Assembly: GCA_041548485.1 (NCBI GenBank)
Contig: JBFESP010000006.1
Coordinates: 19,895-83,894, forward strand
Reading direction: 5' to 3'
DNA: 64,000 nt
Origin: Thermoplasmata archaeon
GTDB taxonomy: Archaea > Thermoplasmatota > Thermoplasmata > UBA10834
The notes beneath the pieces are model-generated. The model was not told the origin of the DNA and ran no database searches. It saw only the letters and a program-made list of their open reading frames with translations. The position numbers were made by a program, and so were the translations under genes. Positions within the stretch are counted from its first letter, which is position 1. Every line of letters begins with the position of its first letter. Shown in pieces: positions 48,942-61,337 of the stretch.

Positions 48942-50276
48942 TCACGCCTCGTCTCGCAGGTCCACACCCAGGTCTCGCATGCTCCGCTTGTACGAGCGGA
49001 TGATGGTCGAGTACTCCTTCGTGGGTCGGCGCTTCTCGGCGTCCCAGCACTCGTACAGAGACTTGCCGAGTGGCGGCTTGAGAAGCCTGTTCTCATATTT
49101 CCCGAGAAGCTTCTTCGCGAGCGTGTTGGCATCCTGTAGCTTCATGCCAGCGACGGCATGACCTACCTCCGCGGATATCCGCGGCTCGACCGGCGTCGTC
49201 CTATCCTCATACCTGTTGGACGCGATGCCCACGGATTCTATGGATAGCCCAGAGGTGACGGCCGCGGTGACCGATGCGGACGTCTCGAACAGAGCCATCG
49301 GTGTGCACGGGCCTGCCGAGGCGTAGTTCAGGTTGATGCTTAGCATATTGGAGTTGCGGGTGACTGCCTGACCGGTCGAGCTGATGACCCAGAGCAGTTC
49401 CCTGCAGCTGCTGGAGACGTACCTGAGGTGCAGTGGGAACGGCAGCAGCCAGCTCGCCTGGTATGTGAGTAGACCCATCATGTGATGGGCCACATTGGAG
49501 ACCGCCGTCCCCTCGGGACCGCCTGAGTACCCACCAAGGAGGGGGCCGAAGCACATGCCGATGGGACCTCCCATAGACAACGCGACCGCAGCTTTGTTCA
49601 GACGCGCGAAATCCACCTTCATGGGGTCCATGCAGCAGATCAAGTAGCCGTCCGACGGTCTCATGCCGTACCTCGGGTGCAGGGCCGCTGCGAAAGCGAT
49701 ATCCGACTCAGCCGTCGAGAGCGAGTTCATTATCGGTATGCCCTCGCGGCCTACGCGGTTGCAGGCCTCCCTTGCAAGGACTGCGTTTCTCATCGCTCCG
49801 AGTACTTCCAGCGGAGAAGCGGGCCTGATCCTCATTCCTCCGACACGCGTGAGAGCTGGCGTCGTGATCGCGTTCGTCTCTGGAATCTCCGCGTAGCCCT
49901 CAACGAGGGTCATGAACGACCTGTCACTCGACGCGGAACCACCGCCCGCACCTAGAAAGCACCATGGGGGGGTCTTGTCGCCAACCTTCCTCGATCTGAA
50001 GGTCTTCCTGTCGCGTCCCTCCCCGAGCTCGAGCGCGTCTGGGGCGGTCCTGATGGCCTCCCTTACCTCCTGGTCGGTGTACGATATGACTCGGGCGCTG
50101 CTTGTGCAGTAAGCACCGACATCGACGAGCAGCTCGACCGCCGCCTTGAAGATGTCGTCCACCAGGGAGCCGTCGTTCGGGATGGGGTTCTTCGGGTCGT
50201 ACTTGATGTCGTACTTCTTGACGACCTCCTGGACCTTCGGGGCGAAGCTGCGAAGCTGGTAGTCAGTCTCGCTCAT
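48942..50276 (-). CDS. MtmB-family (monomethylamine methyltransferase-like) protein lacking pyrrolysine
   Basis: Full-length collinearity with MtmB (for example KVGDKTPP, LGGYSGGPEGTAVSNVAHHMMGLLTYQASW, YASAGPCTPMALFETSASVTAAVTSG). Continuous ORF with no in-frame UAG. The region aligning to the Pyl loop reads GREGIPIMNSLS and is 2-3 residues shorter. Start at the internal ATG (MSETDYQ) with a GAAGGAAA RBS. Confidence 0.75.
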   Translation of the reverse strand: MSETDYQLRSFAPKVQEVVKKYDIKYDPKNPIPNDGSLVDDIFKAAVELLVDVGAYCTSSARVISYTDQEVREAIRTAPDALELGEGRDRKTFRSRKVGDKTPPWCFLGAGGGSASSDRSFMTLVEGYAEIPETNAITTPALTRVGGMRIRPASPLEVLGAMRNAVLAREACNRVGREGIPIMNSLSTAESDIAFAAALHPRYGMRPSDGYLICCMDPMKVDFARLNKAAVALSMGGPIGMCFGPLLGGYSGGPEGTAVSNVAHHMMGLLTYQASWLLPFPLHLRYVSSSCRELLWVISSTGQAVTRNSNMLSINLNYASAGPCTPMALFETSASVTAAVTSGLSIESVGIASNRYEDRTTPVEPRISAEVGHAVAGMKLQDANTLAKKLLGKYENRLLKPPLGKSLYECWDAEKRRPTKEYSTIIRSYKRSMRDLGVDLRDEA

Positions 50277-50328
50277 CGGTTTTCCTTCGAGAGCCCGCCC
50301 CATCACGTCGAGGAACTGGACCAAGACG

Positions 50329-51003
50329 TCACTTCCCCTTGGCCAACTTGTTCGCCAGCTTGATCGTCGTGGCTGCGTCCTCTCCCCAGCCATCGGCCCC
50401 GATCTCGTCGGACCACTCGCCGGTCGTCGGACCGCCTCCGACCATCACTGCGAACTTCTTCCTTTCCTTCAGCGAGACCAGATAGTCCACGATGTCCTTC
50501 TGCGACCCTATGGTGCTGGACATCAACGCAGAGGCACCGATTATCTTCGCGTTGGAGCGCTTGGCCTCCTCCACGAATGTCGTCGTCTTGACATCGACAC
50601 CCAGGTCGATGACGTTGAAGCCGTTCGCCAATAGCATGTTGGATACGATGTTCTTGCCGATCTCGTGCACATCTCCCTGGACCGTCCCAATCGCCACGGT
50701 GGCCTTGGAGACCATCTCGCCCTTCGGGACCAGAGGCAGGAGCAGGGCCATCGCCGTCTTCATCGCGTCGGCGGCAAGCATCAACTCGGGGAGGTATATC
50801 TCCATCTTCTCGAACTTGTCTCCCACCTTCTCGATCGCAGGCACCAATCCCTTCTCAATCGCCTTCAGCGGGTCAACCTTCGCCCTTATCGCATCCTTCG
50901 CTGACTTCTCGGCAGCCGAAGAATCGAAGGACAGGATGGCGTCGCCGAGCGACTTGAACATCTTCTTCTCATCCATGGGGTTCCTTCCTAGCAGCGCGGA
51001 CAC
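50329..51003 (-). CDS. Cobalamin-binding corrinoid protein (MtmC/MtbC/MttC-like)
   Basis: B12-binding N-terminal cap plus Rossmann domain with DxHxxG (GDVHEIGKN). 224 aa. Confidence 0.9.
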   Translation of the reverse strand: MSALLGRNPMDEKKMFKSLGDAILSFDSSAAEKSAKDAIRAKVDPLKAIEKGLVPAIEKVGDKFEKMEIYLPELMLAADAMKTAMALLLPLVPKGEMVSKATVAIGTVQGDVHEIGKNIVSNMLLANGFNVIDLGVDVKTTTFVEEAKRSNAKIIGASALMSSTIGSQKDIVDYLVSLKERKKFAVMVGGGPTTGEWSDEIGADGWGEDAATTIKLANKLAKGK

Positions 51004-51129
51004 AGGGGCCGCGCTGGCTGGGAATGAAGCACTGACGATTTAAAGGGTTCTCTCGGAGGATATCATGACCTATGACCGGGTCGCCACTGGAACGGGCGAC
51101 AGACGGCGGGGATAGGGCCGTTGGAGCCG

Positions 51130-52572
51130 TCAGAACTCGTCTATTACCTTCTTGAGTGCTGACAGTCTGGCACCATCGAGTTTCTCCGGCTGGTGCTCGG
51201 ACAGCATCTTCTGAGCCTTCTCCTCTGCGACATCCATCAGGTCTCTCTTGCCGCTTTCCTCCCACGATTCGTACGAGGACATGTCCCACAATGTCGACAT
51301 GTAGAAGTCCTTCACATGCTTCACCGTGTGCATCTCGCCCAGATAGTTCCTGCCGATGCCGACCTTCTTTATCAGATCCAGCGAGACAGACTCGTCGTTG
51401 ACCTCGATGTCTCTGTTGGAGTTCAGCACGAGAGCCACAATCTCGTTGTCTATGACCATCTGAGCGAAGGAGAGCAGGGTCGAGCCGTCCGCAAGGCCTA
51501 TACCGTTCATTATCTCACAGCCGACAGCGGCCAGCGGCGGAGAGAGGACGGCGTTCTCGACGGACTGTCTCAGTCCTGGAGTCCTCGCACTGCCCCCCAT
51601 TCCGCCAGCGGAACATGGCACGTCCAGATACTTCGCCATCTCCACATTGCCGATGCTCAGCATTATCGTCTCCGGGGCGCCCGAGTTGTAGGCGCCCGTC
51701 TTGGGGTCCATGCTAGACTGAACTGAGCCGTACAGGAACGGCGCACCAGGCTCGTGCGCCTGCATGGCACAGGCAAGGGCCATGGTCTCAGCATGGTTGA
51801 CGACGAGGCTGCCGGCCACCGTGGCGGGGCCGCTCAGGCCCATGCTCGCCATGCCGGTTATGTGCACAGGAACGTGGTTCTCGGCCCAGACCATCGCAGC
51901 GTCGGTCGCTCCGCCGTCAAGGACGAGCGGGGATATCGTGCACACCATCGCGGAGATATAGTGACGTTTCCTGAGCTCCTCCTCGGATCCGACGACGGCC
52001 GCCGCCATCTTGACCTGAGCCCGAGCCTCCTCGGGGGTCGTCGTGGACTCGGTCTCGATATGCTTGGTCGTGTTCTCCATGCCAACCTTCAACCCCTCGA
52101 GGACGTGTGTCTTCGAGGAGATGTCATGCGCCACCACCATCGGCTCGAATATGCTCAGGTACGGCAGCGCGTCGCCCAGAACGGCCGTCTTTCGGATGTC
52201 CTCGAGGACGGATTGACGACGGCTCTTGGTCCTAGGGTCCCACACGGCGATGCCACAGCCGTCGGTGGTGTAGTAGTGATGACGGCGGTCCAGAGGCAGG
52301 TCGTAGTCCTTCGTCCGTCCAGCGAGAACGATGCTAGACGGCGCCTTGGACATCAGTGAGTTGACGAGATCAGGGGAGAACTTCACGACGTTCGTCTTGT
52401 CGTCAACGGCTGCCCCCGCACGTTTCAACGAGTCTCGCGCAACCGGACTCATCACCCTGATTCCAGTGTTCTCAAGAATATCCAGCGCGGAATCATGTAT
52501 CTTCTTCCTATCCGAGTCCTTCATGAAGGACCTTGGCTCTCTCACCTTGAATCTGTCTGCAAACATTGACAT
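51130..52572 (-). CDS. MttB-superfamily (trimethylamine methyltransferase-like, COG5598) methyltransferase, non-pyrrolysine
   Basis: 480 aa. N-terminal pattern typical of the MttB family (KIHDSALDILENTGIRV...LKRAGAAVD...VKFSPDLVNSLMSKAPSSI) and TIM-barrel-length body. No in-frame UAG. AGGAGG RBS. Confidence 0.85.
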   Translation of the reverse strand: MSMFADRFKVREPRSFMKDSDRKKIHDSALDILENTGIRVMSPVARDSLKRAGAAVDDKTNVVKFSPDLVNSLMSKAPSSIVLAGRTKDYDLPLDRRHHYYTTDGCGIAVWDPRTKSRRQSVLEDIRKTAVLGDALPYLSIFEPMVVAHDISSKTHVLEGLKVGMENTTKHIETESTTTPEEARAQVKMAAAVVGSEEELRKRHYISAMVCTISPLVLDGGATDAAMVWAENHVPVHITGMASMGLSGPATVAGSLVVNHAETMALACAMQAHEPGAPFLYGSVQSSMDPKTGAYNSGAPETIMLSIGNVEMAKYLDVPCSAGGMGGSARTPGLRQSVENAVLSPPLAAVGCEIMNGIGLADGSTLLSFAQMVIDNEIVALVLNSNRDIEVNDESVSLDLIKKVGIGRNYLGEMHTVKHVKDFYMSTLWDMSSYESWEESGKRDLMDVAEEKAQKMLSEHQPEKLDGARLSALKKVIDEF

Positions 52573-52709
52573 CCCGATACCTCCTGCTGTAGGAAGCCCA
52601 GGCCCCGGAGGCCGGCTTCAATAGAAAAGGGTTTTCAGATAGCTTCATGACCGTGGAGCGGTGCAACGGCGAAGGATTAAGTAGTTGCCGCATGGCCCAT
52701 TGCACACGT

Positions 52710-54143
52710 TCAAACGCCGACCATCTTCTCGTAGTCTGCGATGATCCCGTCACCCTTGCGCTTCATGTCACCGTCCAACGAAGGGACCTCATGCTCCCGG
52801 AGTATCCTCTTGGCGATCTCCTTCGCCTCGGGGACCATGGCATCGGAGTATGTCCTCTCCCAGTCCTTCTTCGCCTCATCGAAGAAGAACAGCTCCTTCT
52901 TGAAGTTGCGGGCTGTGTGGACATGGCTGAGGAAGGTGTTGCCGTGGCCCACCTGCTTCACGACATCCAAAGCGATCGTCTCGTCGGAGATCTCGAACCG
53001 CCTCATGAAACCACGGACATGCTCCCAGATGCGTGATTCGATGACTGCCTGCTCGTATGACACGCCCTTGACGGCGTCAATCCCGCCGATACCGGAGATG
53101 AGATCGGAGTTGCCCATGGAGCTCAAAGCCACGCCCATGACCTCCGAGAACGATTGTGGGATGCCCGGCGTTTCCTTGTCGTTTATACCCCACTCGCCCA
53201 CCATCGACGGCAGACCGTATCTTCTCGCCATCTGACCGAGCCCAGCGGCGATGATGCAGTGCTCCGGAACCATGTAGTTGATTACTCCTGTCTTCATGCT
53301 GATCGGGGCCGATGATGAGCAGTATATGTGCGGGGAACCAGGAGCGGCGAACTGGGTGATCACCAGGCTTGCCAGGTTCTCAGTGTTCGCGTTCGATATC
53401 GTCCCCGCCATGGTGACGGGACTTGACCCCCCCGGGAGGGACATAGACATCGACATTATCGGTATGCCCGCCCTCACCAGCTCGACCATCCCTTCGACGG
53501 CTCCACCCTCGTACGAGAGGGGAGCGATCGAGCAACAGATCACGGAGAACAACGGCCGCTTCCTCAGCTCCTCCTCGCTCCCTGCGATGAGGGCTCCGAG
53601 CTCCACCTGCTTGCGCGAATCGGCAGCGCCCATCACGGAAACGCCGTTCACGTGCTTCGTCGTGTTCTGCATGGCCGTCCAGAGCTCATGAAGACCGTGT
53701 GAGATCTGAGGCACCTCGTTCGCCGTGATGGACGTCCACAGGAAATCGACCCCATCGAGCCCATCGCCTAGACGAATGAAATCGGCTATGTCCTTCCTAG
53801 TCGACGGCTTCTTCTCGCCCGTCTCCATATCCCTGATGTACACTCCCAGGCCGGAGGTGGCCACGAACGGAGGGCCGGATACCGGGATCTCCATATCGTG
53901 CTTCGGATCCCTGGCACAAAGACGTATGCTCCTGGGTGCCTTCATCAGAGCCTCATTGACCATTTCCTCAGGTATCTTCGCGATCATCTTCGTGAAATCA
54001 ACTTCCGCACCGGAATCGCTGAGCATCTTCAGCGTCACGTCGCTGCGTATGAGCATGCCTATCTCCTGTAGGCTCTTCAGGCTGGATTCGTGTATCAGAT
54101 CCTGCTCATCCCCGGACAGAAAAACAAGTCTCGCTACCGCCAT
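52710..54143 (-). CDS. MttB-superfamily methyltransferase paralog, non-pyrrolysine
   Basis: 477 aa from the internal ATG (MAVARLVFLSGDEQDLIHESSLKSLQEIGMLI...). Same family as the adjacent gene but divergent. TATA CCCATATTATAGGGG lies about 60-75 nt upstream. Confidence 0.85.
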   Translation of the reverse strand: MAVARLVFLSGDEQDLIHESSLKSLQEIGMLIRSDVTLKMLSDSGAEVDFTKMIAKIPEEMVNEALMKAPRSIRLCARDPKHDMEIPVSGPPFVATSGLGVYIRDMETGEKKPSTRKDIADFIRLGDGLDGVDFLWTSITANEVPQISHGLHELWTAMQNTTKHVNGVSVMGAADSRKQVELGALIAGSEEELRKRPLFSVICCSIAPLSYEGGAVEGMVELVRAGIPIMSMSMSLPGGSSPVTMAGTISNANTENLASLVITQFAAPGSPHIYCSSSAPISMKTGVINYMVPEHCIIAAGLGQMARRYGLPSMVGEWGINDKETPGIPQSFSEVMGVALSSMGNSDLISGIGGIDAVKGVSYEQAVIESRIWEHVRGFMRRFEISDETIALDVVKQVGHGNTFLSHVHTARNFKKELFFFDEAKKDWERTYSDAMVPEAKEIAKRILREHEVPSLDGDMKRKGDGIIADYEKMVGV

Positions 54144-54202
54144 GTTACTGCACTCCCCATCGATGCCCCGTTCGTCAACGGGCGTGTCCGCAATCCTCAA
54201 CC

Positions 54203-54214
54203 CCTATAATATGG
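54203..54214 (-). promoter_or_regulatory. TATA box for MttB-cluster transcript
   Basis: CCATATTATAGG on the minus strand, directly abutting the upstream TTG codon. This favours the internal ATG at 54143 as the start. Confidence 0.4.
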
Positions 54215-54272
54215 GTTTGCGTGGTCCGGGGTGATGTGTTTAAGACCTTTTCCCAAATGTGAGAATTCAGAT

Positions 54273-55202
54273 TCAAGCGAGGGGCTTCGTGTCTGGCGTG
54301 GGGGCCTTCTCCTGCAGCCCCTTCATCAGGACGATGTATAGGCCGCCGATGACCAGGATTGAACCGACCACTATCCATCTACCGGGCATCTCGTCAGGAA
54401 GGAGGAAGTACGCCAGCACCGAAGCGCCAATCGGCTCGGCAAGAAGGGATGTCGAGACGATGTGCGCAGGGAGCGTTTTGAGGGCGAAGTTGAACATCGT
54501 GTGGCCGAAGATGGTCGGAACGACCGCCAGTAGGACGAACAGCGAGAGCTCGCGATGCGACGACACTGCGATGACATCGCCCACGATGACGGCTCCGACG
54601 AACAGCATGGCTGCGCATATCAGATAGACCGTGAAGACATACGTTCCCAGTGACACCTTCTGCCTCGCCCGCCTCCCGGAGAGGAGGTAGATGCCCGCAC
54701 AAATACCGCCGAGGAATGCCAGCGTGTTCCCCGTCATGTTGGTCCCCCCCAGCTGTAAGTCTGCCACCGAGATGACACACACGCCAAGAAACGCGACGAC
54801 TATGCCTATCGCCGCTATACGACGCACACGCTCACCGAGCACGAAATGCGACACGCCCGCCACGAACATAGGGTGGGCCGTCACAAGCACGACGGATGTC
54901 GCCACCAGCGTGAGGCTGAGGGACGCAATCCAGAGGCCGAAATGAAACGCCAACGCGGTGGCGCTGACGAAGATGAGGACCCACTCGCGCAGCGGGAGGG
55001 AGCGGAGTTCGGTGAGTCCACGGCTCCTTGCGACGAACGGAAGGAGCATGGCGCACGTGAAGAAGAGTCTGTAGAACGTGATCACGAAAGGCGTCGACTC
55101 ACACCACTTGATCAGTATCGGTGCGAACGAGATCGATACCATCGCGACGACTACCGCGGTGTAGGCTCTGGATACCTCGCTGCCAGCCACTATACGCGTC
55201 AC
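54273..55202 (-). CDS. EamA/DMT-family transporter
   Basis: 309 aa. Ten TM helices and duplicated EamA domains. Immediately upstream of and co-oriented with the methyltransferase genes. Confidence 0.75.
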   Translation of the reverse strand: MTRIVAGSEVSRAYTAVVVAMVSISFAPILIKWCESTPFVITFYRLFFTCAMLLPFVARSRGLTELRSLPLREWVLIFVSATALAFHFGLWIASLSLTLVATSVVLVTAHPMFVAGVSHFVLGERVRRIAAIGIVVAFLGVCVISVADLQLGGTNMTGNTLAFLGGICAGIYLLSGRRARQKVSLGTYVFTVYLICAAMLFVGAVIVGDVIAVSSHRELSLFVLLAVVPTIFGHTMFNFALKTLPAHIVSTSLLAEPIGASVLAYFLLPDEMPGRWIVVGSILVIGGLYIVLMKGLQEKAPTPDTKPLA

Positions 55203-55242: not shown

Positions 55243-55743
55243 TCAGTAGATCGTGACGCCTCTGACGCCCCTCGCCTGGCGGATCAGAGGGATGATCTCA
55301 GAAGGCACCATGCTGTCGGTGACGATGAACAGCTTGGGTTCCTCGGAGGTCATGGGGTCGTCCACTATAGCCTGCCGGATCGATATGTTCGACCGCATCA
55401 GAATCTCCGCCACGCCTGAGATGATGCCAGGCTCGTGGGCATTCACCGGGACGATCTCGATGGCGCTCCACCCCATCGCCGAGGCCGCGTTCTTCAGGTG
55501 GTTCGTGGGCAGAAGCTGCGAGAAGAACTTCTGCAGCGTCGAATCGCCCTTTATCGTCTCAACCGTAGACTTCACCACTCTCCGGTCAACGCCCGCTGCT
55601 CTCGCAAGTGCTGAATCTGCTATCTGTACGTCGCCGCAATAGACACGGTCCCCGTGTATGCGGAGGCCGTACTTCAGCAGATACCGGGCGACCTTCGCCT
55701 GGGACGGGTACTTCTCGAAGTAATTGGCTATTCTATCCCACAT
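55243..55743 (-). CDS. ACT-domain regulatory protein (COG2150-like predicted regulator of amino-acid metabolism)
   Basis: 166 aa. N-terminal HTH-like region and C-terminal ACT-like fold. Divergently arranged with the aro operon. Confidence 0.5.
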   Translation of the reverse strand: MWDRIANYFEKYPSQAKVARYLLKYGLRIHGDRVYCGDVQIADSALARAAGVDRRVVKSTVETIKGDSTLQKFFSQLLPTNHLKNAASAMGWSAIEIVPVNAHEPGIISGVAEILMRSNISIRQAIVDDPMTSEEPKLFIVTDSMVPSEIIPLIRQARGVRGVTIY

Positions 55744-55894: not shown

Positions 55895-56680
55895 ATGGTT
55901 GGAAAGACGATCAGGCTGAGACGCATCTTCGACCAGAAGAGCGGGAATACCGTGATCGTGCCGATGGATCACGGCATCTCCCTCGGTCCGGTCAAGGGTT
56001 TGGCGGACATTAGGAGCACGGTCGACAGACTCGCAGAAGGCCGAGCCTCTGCGGTAGTGGTCCACAAAGGCCTGGTCCCATATATCGGCACTGCCGTAGG
56101 AGCTCCGCTGGGACTAATCGTCCACATATCCGCCAGCACATCGATGTCCCCCGACCCCAACGCGAAGGTGTTGGTGGCAAGCGTCGACGCGGCGGCCGCG
56201 CTCGGGGCGGACGCGGTCTCGATCCACTGCAACATCGGAAGTGACACCGAGAACGTAATGGTTTCCGATTTCGGGATGGTCTCGGACAGATGCGGCGAAC
56301 TGGGCATGCCACTCTTGGCGATGTGCTACCCCAGGGGCAAGAACGTCAAGGACCAGTTCGATGTGGACGCTGTCAAGCATGTCGCGAGATTGTCCGCCGA
56401 GCTCGGCGCCGACGTGGTGAAGACGAACTACACGGGTTCGATCGACACCTTCAAGGAGGTCGCCAACGGAACGCCAGTGCCGGTGGTCATCGCCGGCGGC
56501 CCGAAGATGGATTCCGACATGGACCTCCTCAAGATGGTGAGCGACGCCATGACAGCCGGCGCCCGTGGCGTCTCCATCGGCCGGAACGTCTTCCAGCACG
56601 ACGACGTGGCCATGATCACGAGAGCCATCGGAAAGGTTGTTTTCGAGGGGGCAGCCCCCGAGGATGCTTATAGGCGGTGA
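55895..56680 (+). CDS. aroA': 2-amino-3,7-dideoxy-D-threo-hept-6-ulosonate (ADH) synthase (AroA', DhnA-type aldolase)
   Basis: Class I aldolase fold with Schiff-base Lys region (ADVVKTNY). Family of MJ0400. First gene of the aro operon. Confidence 0.8.
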   Translation: MVGKTIRLRRIFDQKSGNTVIVPMDHGISLGPVKGLADIRSTVDRLAEGRASAVVVHKGLVPYIGTAVGAPLGLIVHISASTSMSPDPNAKVLVASVDAAAALGADAVSIHCNIGSDTENVMVSDFGMVSDRCGELGMPLLAMCYPRGKNVKDQFDVDAVKHVARLSAELGADVVKTNYTGSIDTFKEVANGTPVPVVIAGGPKMDSDMDLLKMVSDAMTAGARGVSIGRNVFQHDDVAMITRAIGKVVFEGAAPEDAYRR

Positions 56681-57716
56681 TCCCCTGGTCGGCCGTCAGG
56701 TCTGGATCGGGGCGATCTTCCAGCCAAACAGGGAGAGCAGGAAGAAGATCGTCCTATCCGCTTTGGAAGTAGGATTCGACACGATAGTTCTCGACAAGAG
56801 GGACTCAGCGTTCACTGAGCTCGGGAGGTTCAGAGCCATCACTCTTTCTGGGAGCAGCTTCACGGAGGACGGAAGAGCCGTTGGGAAGCTTGTGGAGATA
56901 GTCAAGAAGGAGGACGAGCTGAAGGCGAAGAAGTTGACTGATGAAGAGGACCACGTGGTAATCTCCGCGAATGACTGGAAGGTGATCCCTCTTGAGAATC
57001 TCATCGTTCATTTCCAGGGTAGTCGTGCCAAGCTACTCATGGTCGCAAGGACGATAGAAGAAGTGAAGCTGTTCTTCGAGACCATGGAGCGCGGGGCGGA
57101 CGGTGTCCTCTTCGCACCCAAGAGGGTTGAGGACCTGGGCAGGCTGCGCAAGCTGGTCGAGAAGGAGTCACCCAAGCTCGACTTGAAGGAGGGGAAGATA
57201 ACCGTCCTCAGGCAGCTGGGGCTCGGGGACCGGGTCTGCATCGACACATGTTCGGTACTGCGTATCGGCGAGGGGATGCTGATAGGCAACCAGTCATCAT
57301 GCATGTTCCTCATCCACTCTGAGACCCTCGAGTCGGAGTACGCAGCTTCGAGACCGTTCAGGGTGAACGCTGGCCCAGTCCACGCATACATATTGATGCC
57401 TGACGGAACCACGAGATACCTGTCAGAGCTCCGCGGAGGAGAGGAGGTGCTGGTGGTCGACTCCGGGGGACACACCAGAACGGCTATCGTCGGGAGGACG
57501 AAGGTTGAGAGCAGACCGCTGCTCCTGATAGAGGCCGAAGTGGACGGCTCCAAGTACTCCACCATCGTCCAGAACGCCGAGACCATACGAGTGTACTCCA
57601 GGGGAAAGGTCGTGTCAGTCTCGAAACTGAAGGTGGGGGATCCCATCCTGCTGAGGTTGGAGAAGGGTGGACGCCACTTCGGCATGTACGTGGATGAAAC
57701 CATACAGGAGAGGTGA
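56664..57716 (+). CDS. aroB': 3-dehydroquinate synthase type II (AroB')
   Basis: Similarity to archaeal DHQ synthase II (QVWIGAI...KKIVLSALEVGFDTIVL). Start chosen at MLIGGDP. Confidence 0.8.
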   Translation: MLIGGDPLVGRQVWIGAIFQPNRESRKKIVLSALEVGFDTIVLDKRDSAFTELGRFRAITLSGSSFTEDGRAVGKLVEIVKKEDELKAKKLTDEEDHVVISANDWKVIPLENLIVHFQGSRAKLLMVARTIEEVKLFFETMERGADGVLFAPKRVEDLGRLRKLVEKESPKLDLKEGKITVLRQLGLGDRVCIDTCSVLRIGEGMLIGNQSSCMFLIHSETLESEYAASRPFRVNAGPVHAYILMPDGTTRYLSELRGGEEVLVVDSGGHTRTAIVGRTKVESRPLLLIEAEVDGSKYSTIVQNAETIRVYSRGKVVSVSKLKVGDPILLRLEKGGRHFGMYVDETIQER

Positions 57717-59209
57717 TGATGACCCTCGTTGTCGCTTCTCTCGTCGAGAGAGGCATTGCCGGAGTCGCTCGCTCGTCAAAGGAGGCCTTTGCAGCGGGAG
57801 CGGACGCGGTCGAGATCCGCCTGGACCACATACGCGGTCTTGAGCGGAAGACGGGGCTGCTGGATGAGGCGCGCTCTGCGATTGACGGACCGGCCATCGC
57901 TACCCTTCGCTCGGCTCGAGAGGGAGGCCTCTCACGATGCACAGGTGCCAACAGAGCACGGTTGATGGCCACGGTCCTAGATTCCGGGTTCGACTACGTG
58001 GACCTCGAGCTGGTCATGGACAGGAAGCTTCTGGAATACCGCAGGGGCAGACCACGTGGACCGAAGGTGATCGGATCATACCACTTCCGGCGCCCGGCTA
58101 CGCGATCCGAGATAAGAGGACGGCTCGAACGGGCCTGCGGGACGGCAGACATAGGGAAGGTGGCCGCACCCTGCAACCACGCTGGTCACGCGATCGCGAT
58201 CGCGGACGTTGGGTTGGAGTTCTCGAGGAAGAAGCGTGTGTTCGCCGTAATGGGAATGGGTGTCCAGGGGCAGCTGACTCGTGCGTGCGCCAATGGTATC
58301 GGTTCCGAGCTCGTATACGCATGCCTCCCCGGCAGCCCTGCGGCACCAGGTCAGCTCGACGTCGTTCTCCAGTCAGATCTGCTGCGTAAGGAATCCGTCG
58401 TTCTCGGACTCGTCGGGCATCCTTTGACGCACTCAGTGTCCAAGCCCATGCATGAGGCAGCCCTCCGCAGCGTCGGCCTCAAGGGCATCTACATGCCCCT
58501 CGATGTGCCTCCCGGAGGCATGGGCCGGAGGGCGGTCACGACGCTGTTCAAGATCGGCTTCACCGGGCTCAATGTGACCATCCCGCACAAGCGGAAGGCT
58601 TTCGATATCTGCGACGACCACCGCCCGTCCGCTGCATCTACAGGCGCCGTCAACACGCTCGGATGGACGAACGGCAAGCTTGTGGGAGAAAACACAGATG
58701 TACTCGGGCTAACAAAGCTCATTGACGCTAAAAAGGTACGAACGAAAGGGGTCGATTCGCTAGTGGTCGGAGCCGGAGGAGCTGCTCGCGCAGCGTGCCG
58801 GGTCCTCTTGGACGGTGGGTCTGCCGTTACTGTCGTGGCGAGAAGAGACGGCAGGGCACGCGCTCTCGCTAAGTCCTGCGGGGTCCTGGCCGGGTCGTTC
58901 TCTTCCGCGTCGGCAGGGACAGGCATCTTTGGCATCGTGGTCAATGCAACGCCCGTGGGGACACGCGGGACACGACTGGAAGGAGTGACCATTCCCGAGA
59001 GCTTGCTGGAAGGTAGGCCGGTGTTTATCGACCTGGTATACAATCCCCCCGTGACAGGAAGCATGAGGCTGGCGCGGGACAGAGGCTGCGTCGCACACGG
59101 GGGATTGGAGATGCTCGTCGGTCAGGGGGCGGAGGCGTTCGGCATATGGACAGGATACGCTCCGGACCCAAGCGTGATGAGAGCGGCCGCCAGGAGGGCT
59201 TTGGCATGA
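57713..59209 (+). CDS. aroDE: Bifunctional 3-dehydroquinate dehydratase (type I) / shikimate dehydrogenase
   Basis: N-terminal AroD-I region and C-terminal AroE with the NAD(P)-binding GAGGAARA motif. Confidence 0.85.
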   Translation: MMMTLVVASLVERGIAGVARSSKEAFAAGADAVEIRLDHIRGLERKTGLLDEARSAIDGPAIATLRSAREGGLSRCTGANRARLMATVLDSGFDYVDLELVMDRKLLEYRRGRPRGPKVIGSYHFRRPATRSEIRGRLERACGTADIGKVAAPCNHAGHAIAIADVGLEFSRKKRVFAVMGMGVQGQLTRACANGIGSELVYACLPGSPAAPGQLDVVLQSDLLRKESVVLGLVGHPLTHSVSKPMHEAALRSVGLKGIYMPLDVPPGGMGRRAVTTLFKIGFTGLNVTIPHKRKAFDICDDHRPSAASTGAVNTLGWTNGKLVGENTDVLGLTKLIDAKKVRTKGVDSLVVGAGGAARAACRVLLDGGSAVTVVARRDGRARALAKSCGVLAGSFSSASAGTGIFGIVVNATPVGTRGTRLEGVTIPESLLEGRPVFIDLVYNPPVTGSMRLARDRGCVAHGGLEMLVGQGAEAFGIWTGYAPDPSVMRAAARRALA

Positions 59210-60075
59210 GGACGGGAGAGGCGGCCAGCAGGGGAGCAGCGACGATAGTGAACGCCATCGCCTCCGGAAAGGGTGCGGCCTTCGGCATCAGCCTCGAGGT
59301 CGATGCCCGCATCCAGCTCGAAACGGGCGACGGGCCAATAGACGTCGACGGACCGAAGGAGGGGGATGGGCTTGTGGTAGGCTGCATCAGAGCCGCGGCG
59401 TCGGCGACGGGGGCTGGCCCCGTCAGAGGAAAGGCCGTTATCAGGTCAGACATACCGATATCCAGAGGGCTGAAGAGCAGCAGTGCGGTCTCAAACGTAG
59501 TCGCCCTCGCCACGCTCAGAGCGGTCGGGAGGGACCTGAAAGACGATGCGCTTCTGAACATCGCGATCGATGAGTCCATGCGGGCGGGCGTGACGATCAC
59601 GGGAGCGTACGACGACGCTGCGGCATGTCATTTCGGGGGGCTCGTCGTGACAGACAACATATCCAGGACAGTCATCAAGAGGGGAGCGTTGGACCCGGAG
59701 CTCGCCGTCCTGATCCAGGTGCCGGAGGGGAGGATAGCGAAAAGCAGCGTCGACCCGGCCCGCTTCGCCGAGCAGAGCGAGGATTTCGAGAACGCGCTCG
59801 GCCTCGCCGTCAGGGGGGATTATCTTGAGGCCATGGCTCTGAACTCGAGGGCCACGGCCAAGGCGCTAGACCTATCCGACGAAGCGCCAGCTGCCGCAAG
59901 GAAGGCGGGAGCCCTTGCCGCCGGAATAACTGGAACAGGACCTGCGAGCGTCGCCCTGTGCAGGCGCGATAGGATCAAGGATGTCGAGAAGGCGTTGGCC
60001 GCCTTCGACGGCAGCGTCATCCATGCCAGCCTGAACTCGACGCCGTCCAGGGAGGTGGTTCCGCGGCTATTGTAG
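59206..60075 (+). CDS. aroK: Shikimate kinase, archaeal GHMP-kinase type
   Basis: GHMP motif region (PISRGLKSSSAVSNVVA) and an N-terminus matching the archaeal SK (ATIVNAIASGKGAAFGISLEV). Confidence 0.85.
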   Translation: MRTGEAASRGAATIVNAIASGKGAAFGISLEVDARIQLETGDGPIDVDGPKEGDGLVVGCIRAAASATGAGPVRGKAVIRSDIPISRGLKSSSAVSNVVALATLRAVGRDLKDDALLNIAIDESMRAGVTITGAYDDAAACHFGGLVVTDNISRTVIKRGALDPELAVLIQVPEGRIAKSSVDPARFAEQSEDFENALGLAVRGDYLEAMALNSRATAKALDLSDEAPAAARKAGALAAGITGTGPASVALCRRDRIKDVEKALAAFDGSVIHASLNSTPSREVVPRLL

Positions 60076-61337
60076 TCCGGTCGTCGACGGCAAGGGGCAC
60101 GGTCACAGCACCGCCCTCGAAGTCCTACACTCACAGAGCCATGGTCCTCGGGGCGCTGACGAGGAACAGGTTCACGCTGAAGAGTCCATTGTTGTCCGAC
60201 GACACGACGGCCACCCTCGACGCTCTGGCATCTATCGGGACGGACGCCGATGTCCGGTCAGGGGGCCATATAAGACTGACATGTCACGAGCTCAAGTCAC
60301 CGGGAAGAGTGATCGATGTCAGGAACTCAGGGACGACCATCCGGTTGATGAGCGGGATAGCATCCCTGCTCGATACGCCGATCACATTGACCGGCGACGC
60401 CAGCCTCATCAGGCGACCGATGGCGCCGCTCGTGGACGCCCTCGGCCAGCTCGGTGCCAGCTGTGCATACATCGGCCAGCCCGGAAGGCCTCCCCTCAGG
60501 ATCACAGGGCCCATCACCAAGGCCGAGGCGGAGATCGACGGTGGCGTCAGCTCGCAGTTCGTCTCCTCGCTTCTCGTAGCATGCACTCAGAAGGCGTCAT
60601 CGACGAAGTTGAGAGTGAATGGGACCATCACTTCCCGACCCTACGTGGACATAACCCTTGAGATGCTTGCGCAGTTCGGCGCGAGGGTCGATGAAGGCCC
60701 AACGGGCTTCGACATGCCGGGCAGCCAGAGGCTCCGGAGGGACGATTACACGGTCCCAGGAGACTATTCGTCGGCGGCGTTCATGTTGGCTGCTGGAGCG
60801 GTCACCGACGGTGCTGTGACTGTCAGACGGCTGGACGCCGAATCAGCGCAGGGAGACAAGGCGATACTTGAACACCTCGACCGCTTCGGCGCGGATGTTT
60901 CGCGCGCCGCACACACGGCGACTGTGAGAGGGGGCAGGCTCGTGGGCGCCGAGATCGACGTCGGCGATACCCCTGACCTGTTCCCGGTGCTCGCCGTGGT
61001 GGGGGCTGTGGCAGAAGGGAAGACTGTGCTCAGAGGGGGGGTGAACCTGAGGGCGAAGGAGAGCGACCGTATCGCAACGACTACGAAGTTCCTCCAGGAC
61101 ATGGGTGCGAGGATAAGACCTATGGAAGACGGGTGCGAGATCATCGGCGTGCCGAAGCTGGCAGGGGCCAGGGTGGACACCCAGGGGGACCACAGGATTC
61201 TTATGGCTGCAACTGTTGCTGCCCTGGTATCTGGCACCGAGACAGTCATCGAGGACGAGGAGTCCTTCAAGGTGTCGTATCCCGGCTTCATCAGGGACCT
61301 GCACCAGCTGGGATGTCGTGTGGAGGTGAGGAAATGA
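60069..61337 (+). CDS. aroA: 3-phosphoshikimate 1-carboxyvinyltransferase (EPSP synthase)
   Basis: Full EPSPS fold. The conserved N-terminal PPSKSYTHRA motif is encoded upstream of the first canonical start codon (ATG 60141). A 5' boundary at ATT 60069 is proposed. See findings. Confidence 0.85.
   Translation: MVVRSSTARGTVTAPPSKSYTHRAMVLGALTRNRFTLKSPLLSDDTTATLDALASIGTDADVRSGGHIRLTCHELKSPGRVIDVRNSGTTIRLMSGIASLLDTPITLTGDASLIRRPMAPLVDALGQLGASCAYIGQPGRPPLRITGPITKAEAEIDGGVSSQFVSSLLVACTQKASSTKLRVNGTITSRPYVDITLEMLAQFGARVDEGPTGFDMPGSQRLRRDDYTVPGDYSSAAFMLAAGAVTDGAVTVRRLDAESAQGDKAILEHLDRFGADVSRAAHTATVRGGRLVGAEIDVGDTPDLFPVLAVVGAVAEGKTVLRGGVNLRAKESDRIATTTKFLQDMGARIRPMEDGCEIIGVPKLAGARVDTQGDHRILMAATVAALVSGTETVIEDEESFKVSYPGFIRDLHQLGCRVEVRK

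Follow-up and report, generated by a model that had tools for sequence, protein, structure and literature searches.

A conserved cluster with two divergent, pyrrolysine-free MttB-superfamily genes in a Thermoplasmata archaeon

Two adjacent genes of the MttB methyltransferase superfamily, here called paralogue A and paralogue B, were analyzed in a stretch of 64,000 nucleotides (nt; the window) of contig JBFESP010000006.1, which belongs to a Thermoplasmata archaeon of the UBA10834 lineage (GenBank assembly GCA_041548485.1). Substrates are known for only a few MttB-superfamily enzymes, which act without exception either on trimethylamine, via pyrrolysine (Pyl), or on acidic quaternary amines held by a conserved arginine. 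In MttB of Methanosarcina barkeri, the positions of experimental importance are G110-T111, M249, Pyl334, Y364, and G372; Tyr364 is 100% conserved, and the exchange Y364F lowers Vmax ~28-fold (PMC9842639). MtgB of Desulfitobacterium hafniense binds glycine betaine with the ligands Y97, R312, H348, and F356. Every superfamily member with an established function (MtgB, MtcB, MtpB, MtyB, and MthB) is stated to keep the arginine at position R312, and the substrates of the characterized members bearing it are all acidic quaternary amines (PMC13080624). MtcB, MtpB, MtyB, and MthB of Eubacterium limosum act on carnitine, proline betaine, gamma-butyrobetaine, and phosphocholine.

A related two-component system is MtqBC of Methanococcoides methylutens Q3c (2026), which consists of a non-Pyl MtmB homologue and a corrinoid protein and acts on tetramethylammonium and choline. 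For the host lineage, metagenome-assembled genomes (MAGs) of Ca. Gimiplasmatales (UBA10834) and RBG-16-68-12 have been reported to contain non-Pyl mttB, mttC, and mtmB genes (Zinke et al. 2020/2021; Hu et al. 2021; PMC11264602). According to these papers, the Ca. Gimiplasmatales/UBA10834 genomes lack a recognizable second methyltransferase (MT2), and non-methanogenic methylotrophy was proposed. Similar uncharacterized MttB-like clades were described in papers on Asgard archaea, Brockarchaeota, and Culexarchaeia.

The evidence presented below makes it likely that A and B are anciently separated, functional, Pyl-free enzymes of the first methyltransferase type (MT1), belonging to different MttB subfamilies and located in a conserved methylotrophy cluster in which they feed one corrinoid protein. 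Based on solved relatives and on the conserved gene context, A and B would each bind a methylated compound of their own in a TIM-barrel pocket, from which a single methyl group would move to Co(I) of the corrinoid protein whose gene lies downstream. For the next step, onto a pterin carrier, an MT2 would be needed, and no MT2 gene was found in the window. Dispersed MttB paralogues without a corrinoid gene of their own perhaps use the same carrier.

Family membership, divergence, and active-site positions

Both proteins matched PF06253 (MTTB; the superfamily also corresponds to COG5598) over profile positions 31-493 of 500, with E-values of 1.6e-85 for A (287.5 bits) and 8.3e-68 for B (229 bits) at a cut-off of 25 bits. 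BLASTP alignment of A with B resulted in 31% identity over 457 amino acids (aa; E 6e-71). The closest solved structures for both were those of MttB of M. barkeri (7xcl), MtgB of D. hafniense (2qne/9yce), and a Sinorhizobium homologue (4yyc). E-values against 7xcl and 9yce were 8e-56 and 7e-45 for A, and 5e-61 and 6e-49 for B, the latter two over the full length. The AlphaFold2 model of A was of moderate quality (predicted local distance difference test, pLDDT, 65.6); it showed the TIM-barrel fold with C-terminal extension found in MttB and MtgB, with template modeling (TM) scores of 0.81 to 7xcl, 0.79-0.81 to 9yce/2qne, and 0.79 to 4yyc. The model of B (pLDDT 50.7) was too poor for use, and the fold assigned to B rests on the full-length E-values.

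The mechanically predicted open reading frame (ORF) of B extends to a TTG at 54200 (496 aa), which is the start used by gene callers. All B orthologues (n=10) begin with MAxAxxVFLS at an ATG and have a conserved GGrGAG 9 nt upstream, and the start of B was therefore set to the ATG at 54143. Because gene calls over-extend B to the TTG, no match with 100% identity to B was found in the protein collection. Neither the A nor the B ORF contains an in-frame UAG or any other internal stop codon; therefore, neither encodes pyrrolysine. Both proteins are thus predicted to be incapable of acting on trimethylamine by the pyrrolysine mechanism.

Sequences were clustered using all MttB-family ORFs of 78 fetched loci, with three PDB sequences (MttB, MtgB, and 4yyc) as the only reference proteins. 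Nine deep groups with a mean between-group identity of 24-37% were obtained. A was placed in group G1 (60 sequences) and B in group G2 (24 sequences), at a mean identity of 28% between the two. Identities of G1 and G2 to Pyl-MttB were 30% and 29%, and those to the group of MtgB and 4yyc were 26% and 24%, i.e., G1 and G2 were no closer to each other than either was to Pyl-MttB or to the MtgB/4yyc group. Judged from these identities, A and B are anciently diverged members of two deep subfamilies.

Integrity of both copies was assessed at 42 superfamily-conserved columns (>=88% conserved in 109 sequences), of which A keeps 42 and B 40; the two deviations of B are conservative (K for R and E for D). 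In comparison to the closest relative (locus L005), the ratio of nonsynonymous to synonymous substitution rates (dN/dS) was 0.057 for A and 0.056 for B at a dS of ~0.34-0.36. Over the orthologues, ratios ranged from 0.057 to 0.10 for A and from 0.055 to 0.089 for B, and both ORFs are uninterrupted in every orthologue. Both genes are under purifying selection, and both products are predicted to be functional. The notion that one copy is decaying or a non-catalytic duplicate has nothing in its favor beyond the paralogy of A and B; its probability is negligible, and it is effectively refuted by a dN/dS of ~0.06 for both genes at this dS, as well as by the intact ORFs, the retained superfamily columns, and a Shine-Dalgarno sequence and an upstream box conserved for each gene.

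The initial annotation of this stretch had described two adjacent genes of 477-480 aa that belong to the same family and differ substantially, which was taken to suggest different substrates rather than a recent duplication. The coordinates are correct, both products are PF06253 proteins, and an identity of 31% is far below the 80% taken as indicative of a recent duplication; the separate subfamilies at 28% identity agree with this. Damage to catalytic or conserved residues of one copy, which would have spoken against two working paralogues, was not found, and neither copy is degraded (40-42 of the 42 columns kept, dN/dS 0.056-0.10).

Active-site positions were mapped by residue-by-residue HMMER alignments and a MAFFT alignment of 109 sequences. 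Gly110 and Met249 of MttB are retained as G105 and M241 in A and as G98 and M234 in B. The other five positions (positions 1 to 5) are occupied by T111, Y329, Pyl334, Y364, and G372 in MttB, and by Y97, R312, Leu, H348, and F356 in MtgB. The corresponding residues are C106, S321, G326, N356, and S364 in A, and L99, M314, I320, S350, and V358 in B. Small polar residues (C, S, G, N, S) line the predicted pocket of A, and none of them varies among 13 A-type sequences, of which the most distant is 55% identical. For B, a hydrophobic pocket is predicted (L, M, I, S, V), with an additional, nearly invariant Trp318 located in a one-residue insertion. Among the B orthologues, L99 is the sole invariant residue of the five; W318, N321, and D322 are nearly invariant.

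Arginine at the R312 column was present in 0 of the 104 MttB-family ORFs from the fetched loci. The glycine betaine motif of MtgB (Y97/R312/H348/F356) is represented by 0/4 residues in A and likewise in B, and the alignment placed a basic residue at the carboxylate site of neither protein. Since the Arg/His that bind the carboxylate in MtgB are missing from A and B, as is its aromatic pair, glycine betaine and acidic quaternary amines are improbable substrates. The substrates of A and B are probably neither glycine betaine nor any other known acidic quaternary amine, and each of the two proteins likely acts on a compound of its own, distinct from the known betaines. By these residues, A and B belong neither to Pyl-MttB nor to MtgB, and they also lack the feature common to the characterized quaternary-amine members. 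The different substrates suggested for A and B in the initial annotation are upheld indirectly, as the active-site residues of the two proteins differ; a placement of both among the characterized quaternary-amine methyltransferases was not supported, since the Y97/R312/H348/F356 motif including the arginine is missing.

The same residues bear on the automatic labels. Homologues of A and B are labeled 'trimethylamine--corrinoid protein Co-methyltransferase' by JGI and NCBI, the Pyl-MttB equivalog TIGR02369 was the sole NCBIfam match of A and B, and the best match of the corrinoid protein was MtgC. Taken at face value, A and B would be trimethylamine (MttB) or glycine betaine (MtgB) methyltransferases. 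This assignment is highly improbable: the TIGR02369 scores of 394 bits (A) and 363 bits (B) are under the cut-off of 525, the MtgC score of 206 is under 310, UAG and Pyl are absent, A and B have Asn and Ser, respectively, in place of MttB Tyr364, and all four glycine betaine ligands are missing.

The gene cluster and its relatives

Genes for the EamA permease, B, A, the corrinoid protein, and the MtmB-like protein follow one another in this conserved order in at least 12 MAG loci of Thermoplasmata from the UBA10834/Ca. Gimiplasmatales lineage. The whole cluster recurs in loci L001-L012, L036, L045, and L079-L081, which include the closed chromosomes CP070732, CP070736, and CP070748 and the UBA10834 reference MAG contig (L006; A 80%). 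Identity of the orthologues in the cluster was 72-96% for A and 78-96% for B. The block from the TrpY-family regulator through the EamA, B, A, and corrinoid genes to the MtmB-like gene is flanked by an archaeal-type shikimate operon and by AsnC/Thi4/CarAB.

The corrinoid protein, whose gene position is syntenic, contains the motif DVHEIG, i.e., the B12-binding motif DxHxxG. It is MtgC/MtbC-like; MtgC was its best NCBIfam match (206, cut-off 310), and these family scores stayed under their cut-offs. The gene was over-called from a GTG at 51003 (224 aa), and the start shared by the orthologues is the ATG at 50976 (MDEKK). The MtmB-like protein, a full-length member of its family, matched 1l2q with an E-value of 1.7e-69. 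In the alignment, a Met of this protein occupies the position of Pyl202 in M. barkeri MtmB, and its gene contains no in-frame stop codon. The arrangement of the corrinoid and MtmB-like genes suggests translational coupling between them, and because of this coupling the MtmB-like protein would be the primary partner of the corrinoid protein.

Contexts outside the orthologous cluster were counted for A-type genes with both flanks readable. The A-type gene was solitary in 15 loci and was followed by a B-type gene in 7; a gene of a third subfamily (G3) preceded it in 5 loci and a gene of a fourth subfamily (G5) in 3. The B-type orthologues sampled at 60-70% identity were all solitary (3/3). A corrinoid or MtmB-like gene was not detected within 8 kb in any of the ~60 other Thermoplasmata/Chloroflexi MttB-family loci (L013-L078; relaxed tblastn). 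This hints at one corrinoid carrier serving many dispersed MT1 paralogues. In the Chloroflexia MAG loci L070-L072, three to four tandem, mutually divergent MttB-family genes (G4, G7, G8) were observed.

The presence of three different MT1 genes and one corrinoid gene in a conserved cluster would also fit a single Pyl-free pathway, in which the MtmB-like protein, A, and B demethylate one non-carboxylated quaternary amine stepwise with one corrinoid protein. Candidate routes are choline via dimethylethanolamine and monomethylethanolamine to ethanolamine, and tetramethylammonium via trimethylamine and dimethylamine to monomethylamine (or on to ammonium). In line with this, MtqB, the only characterized non-Pyl MtmB homologue, demethylates tetramethylammonium and choline, the carboxylate-binding Arg is missing from A and B, and a corrinoid gene was found near no other fetched MttB locus. 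If this pathway existed, A and B would provide the first demonstrated cases of Pyl-independent demethylation of secondary or tertiary amines. It is nevertheless unlikely, being wholly inferential: A-type and B-type genes occur elsewhere alone or with other MttB subfamilies, the promoter-like box of each gene fits independent substrates at least as well, and the MtmB-like protein is likened to MtqB by family and gene arrangement and not by identity.

The adjacency of G1 and G2 genes in both gene orders and in many distantly related genomes raises a further possibility, a single heteromeric methyltransferase formed by A and B. Dimers are the basic unit of MtgB and MttB, in which the active-site rim of one subunit is formed in part by the other. 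A heteromer is quite improbable, as all sampled B-type orthologues at 60-70% identity and 15 A-type genes are solitary, other A-type genes are paired with G3 or G5 genes, the two genes are separated by a 137-nt spacer with a separate promoter-like box, and the solved relatives are homo-oligomers. Separate MT1 enzymes that share a corrinoid protein remain the preferred reading of the cluster.

Spacer, upstream boxes, and neighboring genes

The positions of the genes and of the elements between them are compiled in Table 1.

Table 1. Features of the methyltransferase cluster and its surroundings in the window
Feature	Position	Strand	Remarks
Non-Pyl MtmB-family gene	48942-50324	minus	460 aa; TTG start 5 nt past the corrinoid stop; PF05369 E 1.7e-93
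Corrinoid (B12-binding) protein	50329-50976	minus	215 aa; ATG 50976; PF02607 + PF02310
BRE/TATA-like box of corrinoid gene	51051-51038	minus	AGAACCCTTTAAAT; GGAAyCCTTTwwAT conserved in 9 orthologous regions
Paralogue A	51130-52572	minus	480 aa; ATG start; MttB superfamily, subfamily G1, non-Pyl
B-A spacer	52573-52709	minus	137 nt
Shine-Dalgarno-like GGAGGT of A	52584-52579	minus	6 nt before ATG; GGAG kept in all orthologous spacers
GC hairpin	52613-52601	minus	4-bp stem; GGCCTCCGGGGCC = GGCCUCCGGGGCC, literally present
BRE/TATA-like box of A	52635-52621	minus	AAAACCCTTTTCTAT; ~48 nt upstream of ATG
Paralogue B	52710-54143	minus	477 aa; ATG at 54143; MttB superfamily, subfamily G2, non-Pyl
Shine-Dalgarno-like GGGGAG of B	54158-54153	minus	9 nt before ATG
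BRE/TATA-like box of B	54218-54205	minus	AAACCCATATTATA; ~61 nt before ATG; block cGAAAcnnATATTA conserved in 10 orthologous upstream regions
EamA/DMT permease	54273-55202	minus	directly upstream of B; PF00892 E 5.7e-31
TrpY-family regulator	55243-55743	minus	186 bits, over the 180 cut-off

The orthologous B-to-A spacers (n=10) range from 103 to ~160 nt. In eight of the 10, the block AAAAsCCTTTTCTAT is strongly conserved; it is degenerate in L011 and L012. This block and the boxes upstream of B and of the corrinoid gene have a common build, consisting of an A-rich element, 2-3 nt, and an 8-nt AT-rich box, located 48-65 nt before the start codon. An A-rich element followed by an AT-rich box is the layout of an archaeal promoter with a transcription factor B recognition element (BRE) and a TATA box. 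The box upstream of A is more likely a promoter of A than a terminator. With the putative TATA box TTTTCTAT centered near 52624, transcription of A would start near 52596-52600, ~26 nt past this center. With this predicted start, most of the hairpin at 52613-52601 would lie upstream of the A transcript. Each with a conserved box and a Shine-Dalgarno sequence of its own, B, A, and the pair of corrinoid and MtmB-like genes probably constitute three separately expressible transcription units.

In this lineage, the three boxes share an AACCC prefix. Sites matching AACCCWTWWHWW occur in the 64 kb only at 51038-51049, 52622-52633, and 54206-54217 on the minus strand, i.e., three sites versus 0.07 expected, an estimate that is biased as the pattern was written after the three sites were known. 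The pattern may represent a shared BRE variant or the site of a common regulator for the corrinoid, A, and B units. Inspection of 28 upstream regions by eye revealed AT-rich boxes at similar distances before other genes of the window, with no single strict consensus, and simple regular expressions for a general promoter motif matched only the A site.

A run of five or more T was not present after the stop codon of B, and a terminator scan of the spacer was empty; read-through from B is therefore possible. The T-tract TTTTCTATT (52628-52620, minus strand) has a run of only four T and forms the 3' half of the AAAAsCCTTTTCTAT block. A terminator role of this tract was rejected in view of the empty scan, the short T run, the conservation of the A-rich 5' part, and the match to the boxes of B and the corrinoid gene. 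The GC hairpin was rejected as a conserved RNA element as well. The 66-nt region around it folds no better than shuffled sequences (z = -0.04), and RNAalifold analysis of 10 orthologous spacers yielded no consensus structure, an energy of ~0, and no compensatory pairs. The orthologues have GC-rich hairpins in the same stretch, in shifting registers and with a mean z of ~-1.1. An Rfam scan of the spacer resulted in a chance match only (Chlorobi-1, 19.9 bits; gathering score 50).

The spacer had been interpreted in the initial annotation as containing a terminator-like T-tract and a GC hairpin between two genes with their own ribosome-binding sites, so that the downstream paralogue A may be separately regulated. 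The ribosome-binding sites were found for both genes, as GGAGGT for A and GGGGAG for B. The letters of the T-tract are present on the minus strand, but they lie inside the conserved BRE/TATA-like box, and the role of a terminator was dropped. The hairpin exists, but its stability is that of chance, and it is unconserved. Separate regulation of A gained support for another reason, namely the conserved promoter-like box.

Two further conserved blocks were noted, TCATGAAG (52644-52651, minus strand) ~10 nt upstream of the A box and GAAAAGGTCTTAAACA (~54232-54247, minus strand) ~30 nt upstream of the B box; both may be regulator binding sites. In the leader of the corrinoid gene (~50985-51030, minus strand; orthologues L001-L012), a GC hairpin of 7-11 bp is located between the TATA-like box and the Shine-Dalgarno sequence in every orthologue. 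The arms differ (AGCGCGG/CCGCGCT, GGACCGC/GCGGTCC, ATGGACC/GGTCCAT) and do not share one alignment register, with z ranging from -0.7 to -3.4.

The EamA permease gene is syntenic in all orthologous loci. The permease scored 76 bits against TIGR00950 (carboxylate/amino acid/amine transporter), which is under the cut-off. It is possibly a transporter of the substrate or product, with an uncertain link to the methyltransferases. A recurrent association of B-type genes with EamA genes was considered and rejected, as the EamA gene that adjoins a B-type gene in L076 bears no relation to the one in the cluster. The shikimate operon (55895-61337, plus strand) comprises genes for a DeoC-family ADH synthase, DHQS-II, dehydroquinase/shikimate dehydrogenase, GHMP shikimate kinase, and 5-enolpyruvylshikimate-3-phosphate synthase. 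The gene of the TrpY-family regulator is divergent to this operon, and the regulator may target the shikimate genes, and perhaps EamA, rather than the methyltransferases.

On the 3' side of the MtmB-like gene, a radical S-adenosylmethionine (SAM) gene is located at 47984-~48900 on the minus strand. Its best NCBIfam match was the peptide epimerase YydG (77 bits, well short of the cut-off). As listed, the ORF extends into the MtmB-like gene, and its true start must therefore be later. Besides the window, only its closest relatives (L005, 6881-7795; L081) carry the radical SAM gene; a rotamase gene is found at this site in other orthologous loci. The rest of the window encodes housekeeping functions, including fructose-1,6-bisphosphatase, triosephosphate isomerase, ADP-forming acetyl-CoA synthetase, 2-oxoacid:ferredoxin oxidoreductase, serine hydroxymethyltransferase, topoisomerase, replication factor C, and CarAB. 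Pyl genes were not found within the 64-kb window, and neither was a tRNA gene of any kind.

Several points weigh against two MT1 enzymes within a methylotrophy cluster as outlined at the beginning. An MT2, a RamA-type activase, and a pterin-binding methyltransferase were all absent from the 64-kb window (~45 ORFs scanned). The EamA permease may belong with the TrpY-family regulator and the aromatic-amino-acid (aro) genes instead. The pockets of A and B were compared by sequence alignment only, the model of B being unusable and that of A moderate. The promoters are proposed on the grounds of conservation and position, and the AACCC pattern was defined post hoc.

Comparison with known systems

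MttB of M. barkeri (7xcl/7xcn), a Pyl enzyme, was the best solved match to both A and B, with ~29% identity over the full length and a TIM-barrel fold. A further likeness is the MttC-like cognate corrinoid protein encoded nearby. The systems differ in that Pyl334 is replaced by Gly (A) or Ile (B), Tyr364 by Asn or Ser, and Thr111 by Cys or Leu; in addition, the host lineage of A and B has been described as non-methanogenic. MtgB of D. hafniense (2qne/9yce) resembles A and B in being a non-Pyl enzyme of equal length that works with a neighboring corrinoid protein, and its fold matched the model of A with a TM score of ~0.80-0.81. In contrast, identity was only ~24%, and all four glycine betaine ligands are replaced in A and B.

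MtcB, MtpB, MtyB, and MthB of E. limosum are, likewise, non-Pyl MT1 enzymes of the MttB superfamily that work with separate corrinoid proteins. According to the published description, by which they were set apart here, all of them keep the R312-equivalent Arg (PMC13080624), whereas A has Ser321 and B has Met314 at this position. MtqBC of M. methylutens shares with the cluster the architecture of a corrinoid gene followed by a non-Pyl MtmB-family gene. This likeness concerns the neighbor of A and B and not A and B themselves, and the host of the A/B cluster is, unlike that of MtqBC, non-methanogenic.

The mttB, mttC, and mtmB genes reported for Ca. Gimiplasmatales are closest in origin. They stem from the same lineage and belong to the same families, with Pyl likewise absent and MT2 likewise missing, and in the available parts of the papers they are treated at the annotation level. 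Relative to these parts, the present analysis adds the fixed cluster order, the placement of A and B in two deep subfamilies, each with invariant pocket residues of its own, the consistent lack of an arginine at R312, and the reinterpretation of the spacer.

A and B represent two large, Thermoplasmata-wide subfamilies that have neither pyrrolysine nor the conserved arginine. Automatic labels make them trimethylamine methyltransferases, and papers on the carbon cycle count such genes as methylamine utilization. The true substrates of A and B would correct metabolic reconstructions of abundant sediment archaea and would show the range of demethylations that the scaffold supports. The cluster is the only corrinoid-adjacent context among ~60 related loci and hence a natural starting point for biochemistry. 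Compared with the systems described so far, the locus is an uncharacterized instance of a well-known methyl-harvesting system and does not constitute a new kind of system.

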